DNA from: Candidatus Omnitrophota bacterium
Lineage (GTDB): Bacteria; Omnitrophota; Gorgyraeia; Gygaellales; Profunditerraquicolaceae
Reading direction: 5' to 3'
Assembly: GCA_030650425.1 (NCBI GenBank)
Contig: JAUSED010000012.1
Location: forward strand, 142,107 to 206,106
Length of the DNA stretch: 64,000 bases
The number at the start of each line of letters is the position of its first letter. Positions within the stretch are counted from its first letter, which is position 1. The translations under genes and the position numbers were made by a program. Positions 17,801-19,784 of the stretch are shown piece after piece. The notes beneath the pieces are model-generated. The model did not search any database, was not told where the DNA came from, and saw nothing but the letters and a program-made list of their open reading frames with translations.

Positions 17801-19371
17801 GATTCTTGGAATACTCTCCAGCGAAAAAAGAATTTGACACTTTTAAACCGGGAGTAGCATATTATCTTTATTGTTTGCAGGATACAAACTGGAAATTAGA
17901 CTTTCCAGCATTTAGCACTAACTTTGTCTACGACGGAGATGGGGGCAGGGTAAAAAAAGCCGTAGGCTCTTCCTCAACTACCTACATCGGTTCGCTCTTT
18001 GAAAAAGATTCAACCGGTAAAACAACCAAGCACATCTTTGCCGGAGCGAACCGTATAGCCTCAGTGTCATTGCGAGGAGCTGCCGAAGGCAGCGACGAGG
18101 CAATCTCTTACTATCATAGCGATCATCTGGGTTCATCCAATGTGATTACCGACAAAGATGGTAACCAGATAGGCCTTACAGAATTCACTCCCTATGGTTC
18201 TATCTCTAAGCAGTCAGGCTCCTATGATCCCAAGTATAAATTTAATGGTAAAGAATTAGAGAGTACGGGATTATATTTTTATGGTGCGCGATATTACGAT
18301 CAGGAGTTAGGCAGGTTTATAAGTGCGGATACGATAGTGCAGGCGTCCTATGATCCCCAGAGCCTTAATCGCTATAGTTATTGTAGGAATAATCCCATAA
18401 ATTACATCGATCCTACCGGACATTGGTGGTTTATTGGTATTATAGTAGGCGCAATACTTGGCGGCGTTAGTTCTGCAGTCAACAATCAACCGGTATGGCA
18501 GGGGGCGCTTATGGGTGCCTTGGGCGGAGCATTAGTTGCCGGAGGTGCTGCTTTAGCTACAGAAATGGGGCTTTCAGCAGGTTTGGGTGCAACGATTGGA
18601 GGAATAGTAGGTGGTGTAGCTAGCTCTGCAGTTAATGGTGGAAATATCGGAGTTAGCGCACTTACTGGTGGATTGGGTGCAGGAATAGGGTACGGTCTTG
18701 GCTCTTGGGCGAGTGGATGGAATAGTGGAAGTTTTTGGGGTGGATTAGGCGCTTCAGCAGTTGCCGGTGGTATTGCTGGAGGAGTAGGCGCAGAACTTTC
18801 GGGAGGTAGCTTTGGCCAAGGCGCATTGATGGGGGCAGCATACAGTAGCGCGGGATTTTTAGGATCATATGGTGCCAATAGTTTAGACCCTCGTGCTGTT
18901 CAAGCAAGAGCCTATGAACGTGAAGTAAAACAAATGCACGATCTTAACGTAAAAAAGAATGATATGGTAAAGATAGAAACTGGTGGTAGACCAGTTGCCG
19001 GAACTGGTGCATCACATCGCTTTATCTCTGGGTTTGAAATGGGGCCAAAACAACCGGGAGGAGGACCAATAACAACCACAAACACAGTTAATGATTTGTC
19101 AAGTTGGCGTACTTTCAAAAATACGCAGGATGCTTTTGGGACAAGAACCGCTAATACTGTTACCACTGAAGTTAGCTTTTCTGGTTTAGTTGATGCGATA
19201 GATCTATATAACGGCTCTTGGGGTGGTAGCCAGTATAGCGCATTCAGTTACAATAGCAATTATGCCGTCAATACGGTAATCTATGCGGCAGGTGGAAATA
19301 CCCCCGGTGCATTTTGGGCACCAGAATTTAGGAGTTCAACCCTATATTATTCACAGAACCCAAATAATTGA
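11863..19371 (+). CDS. Giant Rhs/YD-repeat polymorphic toxin (TcB-TcC fusion-like). Domain order: Sec signal, SpvB domain, FG-GAP-like repeats, YD repeats with an inserted LamG domain, RHS core (…[11 protein letters not shown]), glycine-zipper C-terminal toxin.
   Basis: SpvB/TcaC N-terminal motif ([43 protein letters not shown]). Repeated DxNxDGxxD loops. Many YD repeats. LamG-like jellyroll around 15930-16545. RHS core with the DPxGH motif. Gly-rich C-terminus. Confidence 0.85.
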   Translation: [2502 protein letters not shown]

Positions 19372-19382
19372 GATAAGCTATT

Positions 19383-19784
19383 ATGGGAAAAATTAAGTTG
19401 CTTTTATTCATATTGCCAATTTTTATACTAATTAATAATTTTAGAGGAGTAGCTATGGCAAAAGGACCGGATTACAAAGCAGTGATTCAAGAAAAATTTA
19501 AACAGCTCGATTTATCTGATGGCGTTAGCAAAGAAGAGGCGATTATTATTGCTCAGAATTATCTTATTGAGCAAGAATTAGATAAGAAATATGTTTTAAG
19601 AAAACCTGAAGTTGATGAGCGTGATTTCGGTACAGAATGGGTTATAACTTTTAACGCAACATATTGGGAAAGTATAAAACAAGCTAACATTTTTGGTCTC
19701 ACAGGGATAATGAAATGGTGGATTAGCGTGGATATTGATAAAAAAACAGGAAAGATAGAAAGCGTAGGCGGTCCTGATTTATAG
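19383..19784 (+). CDS. Small secreted protein, candidate immunity protein for the Rhs C-terminal toxin
   Basis: Starts 12 nt after the Rhs stop. Signal peptide. 133 aa. Confidence 0.4.
   Translation: MGKIKLLLFILPIFILINNFRGVAMAKGPDYKAVIQEKFKQLDLSDGVSKEEAIIIAQNYLIEQELDKKYVLRKPEVDERDFGTEWVITFNATYWESIKQANIFGLTGIMKWWISVDIDKKTGKIESVGGPDL

Follow-up and report, generated by a model that had tools for sequence, protein, structure and literature searches.

The window considered here is a stretch of 64,000 nucleotides (nt) from contig JAUSED010000012.1 of Candidatus Omnitrophota bacterium. It contains a gene encoding a large Rhs protein, the C-terminal region (CT) of which is made up of a glycine-zipper segment and a globular domain, and, directly downstream, a small gene encoding a candidate immunity protein. 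The principal features of the locus, with lengths in amino acids (aa), are listed below.

11863–19371, + strand: gene of an Rhs/TcB-TcC-like shell protein, 2502 aa, secreted; open reading frame (ORF) with Pfam and NCBIfam matches
11863–11949, + strand: Sec signal peptide, as predicted for the Rhs protein; n-, h- and c-region layout judged by eye from the sequence
18184–18423, + strand: Rhs-associated core, aa 2108–2187; match to TIGR03696 (2.7e-22), ending in DPTGH
18424–18873, + strand: glycine-zipper hydrophobic segment, 150 aa, first half of the CT; recognised by composition, hydropathy and lag-4 periodicity
18874–19368, + strand: predicted C-terminal toxin domain, 165 aa, with putative catalytic residues H48 (19015–19017), E55 (19036–19038) and S128 (19255–19257), the last within N127-S128-N129
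19383–19784, + strand: immunity candidate, 133 aa; predicted signal peptide 19383–19460 (cleavage after AMA) and PepSY/cystatin-like domain

The Rhs carrier and the glycine zipper

The Rhs protein comprises, in this order, a signal peptide, SpvB, FG-GAP and TcdB_toxin_midN domains, RHS repeats with a LamG insert, the Rhs core and the CT. Its Pfam matches include RHS_repeat (PF05593, 1.5e-44), SpvB (3.1e-25), TcdB_toxin_midN (1.9e-24) and Laminin_G_3 (2.7e-15), and a phmmer search of PDB gave matches to TcdB2-TccC3 and YenC2. The presence of SpvB, TcdB mid-N and RHS domains within one protein is a feature of Tc (TcB-TcC) shells. The features that define Rhs/YD systems were also found: RHS/YD repeats with a core ending in the PxxxxDPxGx motif, a variable CT beyond this core, a small cognate gene immediately 3′ of the CT, and orphan or displaced modules among the relatives. 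The system belongs to the Rhs polymorphic toxins, all testable defining features of which are present.

The DPTGH motif occupies aa 2183–2187 (nt 18409–18423), and the start of the toxin region given in the earlier note, 18415, lies within it. By analogy with TcC and Rhs structures, this motif is the expected boundary of aspartyl autoproteolysis, and cleavage here would release a CT of 315 aa consisting of the 150-aa zipper and the 165-aa globular domain.

The zipper contains 28% Gly, and Gly, Ala and Ser together make up 56% of its 150 residues; only two residues are charged (E47 and E124) and one is Pro. When lags 1–8 were compared, the periodicity peaked at lag 4, where 19 Gly-Gly pairs were counted against 12.9 ± 2.6 in shuffled sequences (5000 shuffles, p = 0.016), and 60 pairs of small residues (Gly, Ala or Ser) against 47.9 ± 3.1, a number reached by none of the 5000 shuffles. 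Therefore, the periodicity exceeds what composition alone would give, and the earlier description of this part as about 150 aa of GxxxG repeats following DPTGH proved to be accurate. A Pfam search of the zipper gave no match at E ≤ 0.1, glycine-zipper families included, and the zipper alone had no match in PDB, where Tse5 aligned only through the Rhs core. The likeness of the zipper to glycine-zipper toxins lies in periodicity only. The rise in G+C content at 18250–19000 is a side effect of the Gly and Ala codons. Two reverse-strand ORFs (18486–18878 and 18662–18907) were rejected as genes, being a Pro/Ala-rich mirror of the Gly/Ala-rich coding strand.

Family and fold of the globular domain

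Direct sequence searches with the window domain against Pfam, NCBIfam and PDB revealed nothing beyond a chance match to VP5 (E 1.1), and a profile search against PDB retrieved only an S-layer fragment (E 0.12). In none of the searches was there a sign of nuclease or deaminase homology of the CT, one of the two points on which the earlier note had made its prediction depend; the other, conservation of the downstream ORF with this CT, was found in the loci described in the next section. A word-indexed search of 5.8 billion proteins yielded only six relatives of the domain, and among 1.84 billion cluster representatives a profile search identified 84 members (E ≤ 1e-3). In nearly all of these 84 representatives the domain ends 0–8 residues from the C-terminus. 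In the long members (1198–3568 aa) it is preceded by a DPxGx motif, and these proteins are annotated as ‘RHS repeat-associated protein’ or ‘SpvB/TcaC N-terminal domain-containing protein [Candidatus Omnitrophota]’. Every named source of the family is Candidatus Omnitrophota; a genome scan for the domain, made with an alignment of seven sequences, gave four genome loci, all of which come from Omnitrophota metagenome-assembled genomes, as do the sequences P0033 and P0136. It appears that the domain family is confined to Omnitrophota.

An alignment of 59 sequences of the family (A3) was used to build an AlphaFold2 model of the domain with a predicted local distance difference test score (pLDDT) of 88 and a predicted template modelling score of 0.85. 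S128 opens the last helix of the model (128–138), H48 is located on a β-strand (47–51) and E55 on the strand that follows it. The arrangement of PPPDE peptidases, a His-bearing β-strand preceding a C-terminal helix that opens with the nucleophile position, is thus found in the model. The Pfam family matched by most members is PF05903 (Peptidase_C97/PPPDE), with three of the 59 sequences matching at E ≤ 1. The matches examined, P0132 (E 9.6e-4) and P0126 (E 0.01), cover profile positions ~54–125, the region of the catalytic motif, and have no Cys in the motif. The best score, 19.5 bits for P0132, does not reach the gathering cut-off of 29.2, and the sequence of the window has no match. Members with the motif NCNSN were considered as the origin of the PF05903 matches and rejected, as those members do not match and the matching members examined lack the motif Cys. 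In an hhalign comparison of A3 with DeSI-1 (one alignment), N127-S128-N129 fell on N107-C108-N109; with a relaxed alignment threshold H48 also fell on H38 of DeSI-1 and G57 on G51, with low statistical support. C108 and H38 are the catalytic dyad of DeSI-1.

The conservation pattern is consistent with this comparison. In A3, G57 and N129 are present in all 59 sequences and H48 in all 57 without a gap at this position; Y121 is conserved in 58/59, T84 and N127 in 57/59 and R39 in 52 of 53 non-gap sequences, while position 55 is Glu or Asp in 57/59. S128 is found in 52 of the 59, including all 52 toxin-type sequences at a mean identity of ~30%, and the seven exceptions, with Glu or Asp, are all small secreted paralogues. 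In 31 of the 33 distinct loci, Ser128 is encoded by AGY, which is a single step away from Cys TGY. The window domain has no Cys at all, and its motif reads N-S-N where PPPDE has N-C-N.

Taken at the level of sequence profiles and the model, the domain looks like a remote PPPDE-like permuted papain fold with Ser at the position of the catalytic Cys. It is not a member of the Pfam PPPDE family, since the threshold is missed and the catalytic Cys is absent. Fold and conservation suggest a Ser128-His48-Glu55 hydrolase, with a mode of action that is probably that of PPPDE or TseH-type enzymes. The domain had been described as having no recognisable motif; this stands for Pfam, NCBIfam and PDB sequence matches and has to be amended by the remote PPPDE-like fold with its conserved His and Ser.

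Several known proteins are informative for comparison. PPPDE/Peptidase_C97 proteins (DeSI-1/DeSI-2; PDB 2wp7 and 3ebq) share with the domain the permuted order, in which the His strand leads and the nucleophile helix comes at the end, an in-register alignment of the N-x-N motif and the His, and the weak PF05903 matches of some members. They differ in that the domain misses the Pfam threshold, has Ser for Cys and a conserved acidic residue (E55), and belongs to a predicted bacterial extracytoplasmic toxin, whereas PPPDE proteins are eukaryotic cytosolic isopeptidases. TseH of Vibrio cholerae (PDB 6v98) was predicted by HHpred to be a Peptidase_C97 or amidase_6 protein; it is toxic only in the periplasm, with peptidoglycan as the proposed substrate, and is neutralised by the co-encoded TsiH, and TseH-like domains occur at the C-termini of Rhs proteins (PMC4453574). 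Unlike the present system, TseH is a hydrolase of the cysteine type that is delivered through a type VI secretion system (T6SS) without a glycine-zipper leader, and it has no detectable sequence similarity to the domain, which has Ser at the nucleophile position, a Sec-exported TcB/TcC-like Rhs carrier and a PepSY-like immunity candidate. The serine papain-like families menin, DUF2145, DUF2272, DUF3750 and APC5867 likewise have a conserved Ser for the catalytic Cys and retain the His (PMC10318531), but none of them is described as an Rhs-CT toxin, and all are putative enzymes. In the Pfam scan, none of these five families matched the domain.

Partner proteins and the loci of relatives

The signal peptide of the 133-aa protein has a tripartite layout, with MGKIK as the n-region, LLLFILPIFILI as the hydrophobic core and NNFRGVAMA as the c-region, K being the first residue after the predicted cleavage site. 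Homologues of the immunity candidate number 48, and their N-termini carry either a signal peptide (a K/R-rich n-region, a hydrophobic core and a KG[VI]AM[AG] c-region) or a lipobox; the hydrophobic N-terminal extension of the ORF is open in all of them. The AlphaFold2 model (pLDDT 82) points to an α-plus-β-sheet fold of the PepSY/protease-propeptide/cystatin-like type, a likeness at the level of fold only; none of 31 family members matched PF03413 (PepSY) at E ≤ 1. Beyond the signal peptide or lipobox there is no membrane span, and the protein seems to be a soluble α/β domain, not an integral membrane partner as for pore toxins. An internal ATG at 19455 (Met25; region 19437–19457) is preceded by a strong Shine-Dalgarno-like AGAGGAG, and one gene caller chose this start (P0007, 109 aa). 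Within the conserved KG[VI]AM[AG] motif, Gly is encoded by GGA or GGG in all 13 distinct homologues, compared with a background use of 58%. The internal ATG could be an alternative start for a signal-less cytoplasmic isoform or could coincide by chance with the signal-peptidase site. In L001, L012, L014 and the third pair of L013 (loci are denoted by L and a number), the homologue has a lipobox Cys and no internal Met, so that export is obligatory there.

Scans with hidden Markov models for the CT domain and the PepSY-like gene covered 41 loci. In about 20 loci the PepSY-like gene lies 16–52 base pairs (bp) 3′ of a Ser-type CT: the window, L001, L002, L012, L013 (three diverged pairs), L014/L022, L016/L017/L027, L019/L020, L021, L023, L028, L029, L030, L031, L034, L037 and L039. 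In L005 it follows a truncated CT. Two distant PepSY-like lipoproteins with canonical lipoboxes were also observed. One, in L002 (1794–2144), is an extra copy following the cognate immunity gene; the other, in L013 (7236–7556), accompanies a CT that has diverged strongly (FNSNYFIN) and sits on an orphan Rhs module.

This pairing supports the interpretation of the CT domain and its partner as an undescribed Rhs-CT/immunity family of a known kind, as the earlier note had proposed. Its other statements on the partner also withstood the comparison: the 133-aa gene with a signal peptide is real, a signal peptide or lipobox is common to the family, and the suggestion that an exported partner fits an envelope-acting toxin is supported by export signals across the family.

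The zipper and the globular domain differ in their distribution. In the 27 family members retaining DPxGx, the linker between this motif and the domain is 123–187 aa long, mostly 137–155 aa, and it is Gly-rich (0.19–0.31) in about 22. Close relatives share a strongly conserved zipper, and across the family it accompanies the globular domain almost constantly. A homologue search with the zipper by itself gave, among the matches listed, one sequence (P0136) from the same family, and the only Gly/Ala-rich linker preceding a different CT was found in the first Rhs gene of L004. Orphan modules starting just past the zipper are present in L004 and L015, the first 13 residues of the L004 orphan being identical to the window sequence. 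Three tandem CT-immunity modules and an orphan core-CT-immunity module occur in L013, and C-terminal remnants of the CT lie behind immunity genes in L017, L028, L029 and L038. Since the orphans and displaced remnants lack the zipper, the sequences identify the globular domain together with the immunity gene as the recombining, exchanged unit. Between the Rhs modules of L013 (5030–5528) there are two small minus-strand ORFs, which by sequence reading are a possible toxin-antitoxin pair.

Some relatives have another type of partner. These partners are small paralogues of the toxin domain, secreted or lipoproteins, in which H48 and E55 are retained and S128 is replaced by Glu or Asp (NENY or NDNY against NSNY). 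They were found at the following positions of the loci of relatives.

L006, 501–1103 (also in L007–L011): Glu/Asp paralogue
L018, 3520–4008: Glu/Asp paralogue
L024, 3476–4009: Glu/Asp paralogue
L026, 3485–4009: Glu/Asp paralogue
L031, 1737–2240: Glu/Asp paralogue
L035, 2728–3279: Glu/Asp paralogue
L036, 1960–3330: Glu/Asp paralogue

In L006–L011, L018, L024 and L026, which represent four locus types, the paralogue directly follows an Rhs-CT of the same family, with a stop-codon overlap or a gap of 19 bp, and no PepSY-like gene is present. In L031 and L035 the paralogues are extra genes. The Glu/Asp paralogues may be toxin-derived pseudoenzyme immunity proteins; if they are, immunity evolved from the toxin itself. 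In a divergent CT subgroup (~29–40% identity), the next gene (L015, 623–1591, and L035, 1378–2277) encodes a secreted protein of ~300–322 aa in place of the PepSY-like one. This protein, perhaps β-propeller-like to judge from its sequence, is a third candidate immunity type for the same toxin fold.

Mode of action, genomic setting and significance

The preferred reading, with a probability of about 0.5, is that the locus encodes a polymorphic Rhs toxin/immunity module in which the zipper inserts or translocates, the hydrolase is the warhead and the PepSY-like protein is the periplasmic inhibitor. By homology, the Sec-exported SpvB/TcdB/RHS protein has the domains of a closed shell and a core ending at DPTGH, and the 315-aa CT, as in the solved TcB-TcC and Rhs structures, would be cut at this motif and kept inside the shell. 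Upon delivery, the zipper half would enter the target membrane and either tether the C-terminal domain at the periplasmic face or carry it across. This domain, a putative Ser-His-Glu hydrolase, would attack an envelope substrate, cleaving either the peptide bonds of peptidoglycan or bonds, acyl or peptide, in the lipids or lipoproteins of the envelope. PLAAT and CLN5 are precedents for the hydrolysis of acyl or peptide bonds on lipids or lipoproteins. The producer and its kin would be protected by the PepSY/cystatin-like partner, which is predicted to be Sec-exported and, in some relatives, lipidated, and which would bind and block the hydrolase in their periplasm.

The best analogue for the zipper half is Tse5 of Pseudomonas aeruginosa, where an Rhs shell also encloses a hydrophobic, membrane-entering CT of ~150 aa (PMC9637101). 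Unlike the CT considered here, Tse5-CT is the whole toxin, is delivered by PAAR/T6SS and has an integral membrane immunity protein (Tsi5, two transmembrane segments; PMC9637101), whereas the zipper of the window shows no sequence similarity to it and is followed by a conserved enzyme-like domain with a soluble immunity candidate. In Tde1 of Agrobacterium tumefaciens, the enzymatic toxin domain is preceded by a GxxxG zipper that makes the membrane permeable; translocation depends on this zipper, but catalysis does not (PMC10240207). It is a short zipper and serves a DNase cargo with a cytoplasmic target and T6SS delivery, as opposed to the 150-aa zipper and predicted periplasmic immunity of the present system. 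The mosquito protein SGS1 and its bacterial relatives have the same linear layout, with a shell, a cleavage site, ~230 aa of latent transmembrane helices stored inside the shell and a Tox-SGS domain (PMC9935623). In a phmmer comparison of window 17863–18873 with SGS1/SGS4 (8fjp_A, 9on3_A), the alignment passed DPxG into the hydrophobic segment (query 86–316, SGS1 2635–2870), but the similarity of the hydrophobic part is not significant alone. SGS1 also differs in having no immunity partner, and no Pfam match to Tox-SGS was found in the window CT or in any of the 59 family members.

A number of observations weigh against the preferred reading. The placing of the putative Ser-His-Glu triad is based on the secondary structure of the model and on conservation. 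Ser-based papain-like enzymes were never shown to be active (PMC10318531), and therefore the domain could be a pseudoenzyme. A Pfam scan of 20 flanking ORFs gave no gene of a TcA-type injection subunit or of T6SS. The zipper, at 150 aa, has the same size as the pore-forming Tse5-CT, and the division of roles between zipper and domain was inferred. Finally, the immunity gene may also be translated from the internal start, without a signal peptide.

The pore-forming action suggested by the size of the zipper is the most serious of the alternatives, although it seems rather unlikely. According to it, the zipper itself is the toxin, a pore-former like Tse5-CT, EsxX or CdzC that depolarises the target, and the globular domain is accessory, acting in receptor binding, as a plug or in chaperoning. 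It draws on the reality of the GxxxG periodicity, the two charged residues among 150, the match in size to the CT of Tse5 (149 aa), the pore-forming part of that Rhs effector (PMC9637101), the strong conservation of the zipper in close relatives together with its nearly constant presence in the family, and the good documentation of glycine-zipper toxins (PMC12744356, PMC5380434). The immunity candidate does not fit this picture, being soluble and exported with a protease-inhibitor-like fold, whereas the immunity proteins of channel-forming effectors are almost always polytopic membrane proteins (PMC12744356; for Tsi5, PMC9637101). Besides, the variable unit is the globular domain with the immunity gene, orphans start past the zipper, the domain keeps an invariant His/Ser/Asn constellation typical of an enzyme, and the zipper resembles neither Tse5-CT nor the Pfam glycine-zipper families in sequence. 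Because the immunity protein is soluble and the globular domain is the polymorphic, immunity-matched part, the zipper more likely serves in membrane insertion or translocation than in killing; a Tse5-like pore role and the hydrolase-warhead reading are not mutually exclusive. Of the initial comparison of the zipper with pore toxins, the periodicity is retained, and a killing role has become less likely in view of the soluble PepSY/cystatin-like immunity protein.

It is improbable that the domain is a dead pseudoenzyme that acts by binding to some component of the envelope, for instance peptidoglycan, lipid II or a lipoprotein, or merely anchors the cleaved CT. The absent catalytic Cys, the lack of any Ser-based papain-like family with shown activity and the inactive peptidoglycan-binding NlpC/P60 relative DUF1175 (PMC10318531) are in line with such a role, but pure binding would not need a Ser kept in all 52 toxin-type sequences at ~30% mean identity together with a near-invariant His48 and acidic residue 55, and the loss of Ser only in small secreted paralogues at immunity positions suggests that Ser matters for toxicity. 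Still less probable is a cytoplasmic target, which the hydrolase would reach through the inner membrane by means of the zipper, as proposed for Tde1, and for which the relevant immunity protein would be the signal-less form starting at 19455. The Shine-Dalgarno-like sequence before the internal ATG, its use by one gene caller, the Gly codon bias within the conserved KG[VI]AM[AG] and the action of eukaryotic PPPDE relatives on cytosolic protein conjugates speak for it. On the other hand, the lipobox homologues without an internal Met must be exported, the hydrophobic N-terminal extension is open in all homologues, and TseH, the closest toxin with the same fold, acts in the periplasm only (PMC4453574). 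The view that the protein is not a toxin at all, the zipper being the C-terminal membrane anchor of a surface Rhs adhesin and the small protein its structural partner, is very unlikely. It would be in agreement with the lack of delivery machinery among the flanking ORFs, with the dockerin/PKD surface protein encoded next to the Rhs gene and with mosquito SGS1, which shows that Rhs shells are able to carry latent transmembrane helices (PMC9935623); the relatives, however, behave as polymorphic toxin loci, with three tandem modules and an orphan core-CT module in L013, truncated CT remnants behind immunity genes and alternative immunity types.

The genes surrounding the module belong to a chromosomal, anaerobe-like setting (window 3633–10301 and beyond), which is not a mobile element. 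The presence of a gene encoding a TolC-type outer membrane efflux protein (45141–46775) indicates that the organism is diderm. The product of the gene directly upstream of the Rhs gene (10430–11866) is 478 aa long and has dockerin, PKD and CHB_HEX_C-type domains. The stop codon of this gene overlaps the start of the Rhs gene (ATGA), and its product may be co-translated with the Rhs protein and serve it as a partner at the surface or in adhesion. Farther upstream there are multihaem cytochrome c genes (6483–8204 on the + strand and 8889–9668 on the − strand), a gene encoding an NHL-repeat propeller (5467–6483) and another NHL-repeat gene (1597–2658), and a 610-aa ORF without a family match (3633–5465). 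The four genes directly 3′ of the immunity gene (19827–21511) have the appearance of a small accessory islet. The first of them, a 125-aa ORF without a family match, is overlapped by a weak, sub-threshold ParE-like ORF (20201–20497), with which it could form a toxin-antitoxin pair; the other islet genes encode an excisionase-like protein of the HTH_17 type (20577–20783) and a Fic-domain protein (20777–21511). Beyond the islet, Hdr-like and complex-I/Mrp genes were found.

Rhs toxin/immunity modules are known and new CT families turn up regularly, which makes the basic result incremental. A bolder possibility, put forward here tentatively as one that is less probable than not by a wide measure, is that of an Omnitrophota-specific Rhs toxin with a working Ser-His-Glu papain-fold warhead, the first functional serine PPPDE, perhaps adapted to an oxidising extracytoplasmic route. 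Such a toxin would use its own 150-aa zipper as a translocator into the periplasm of the prey without T6SS or TcA, and in some strains its immunity protein would be a secreted Ser-to-Glu copy of the toxin domain. The invariant Ser in the context of a toxin with an inhibitor, where activity would be simple to assay, offers a direct route to the question of whether Ser-based papain-like proteins are enzymes, flagged in PMC10318531. The combination of a constant ~145-aa zipper with a soluble enzyme domain and periplasmic immunity, in a carrier without T6SS or TcA, can separate the role of the zipper as a translocator from that as a pore. Omnitrophota are ultra-small and possibly predatory or epibiotic bacteria, and their means of attacking other cells are largely unknown. 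The apparent restriction of the family to Omnitrophota bears on how these bacteria attack other cells.

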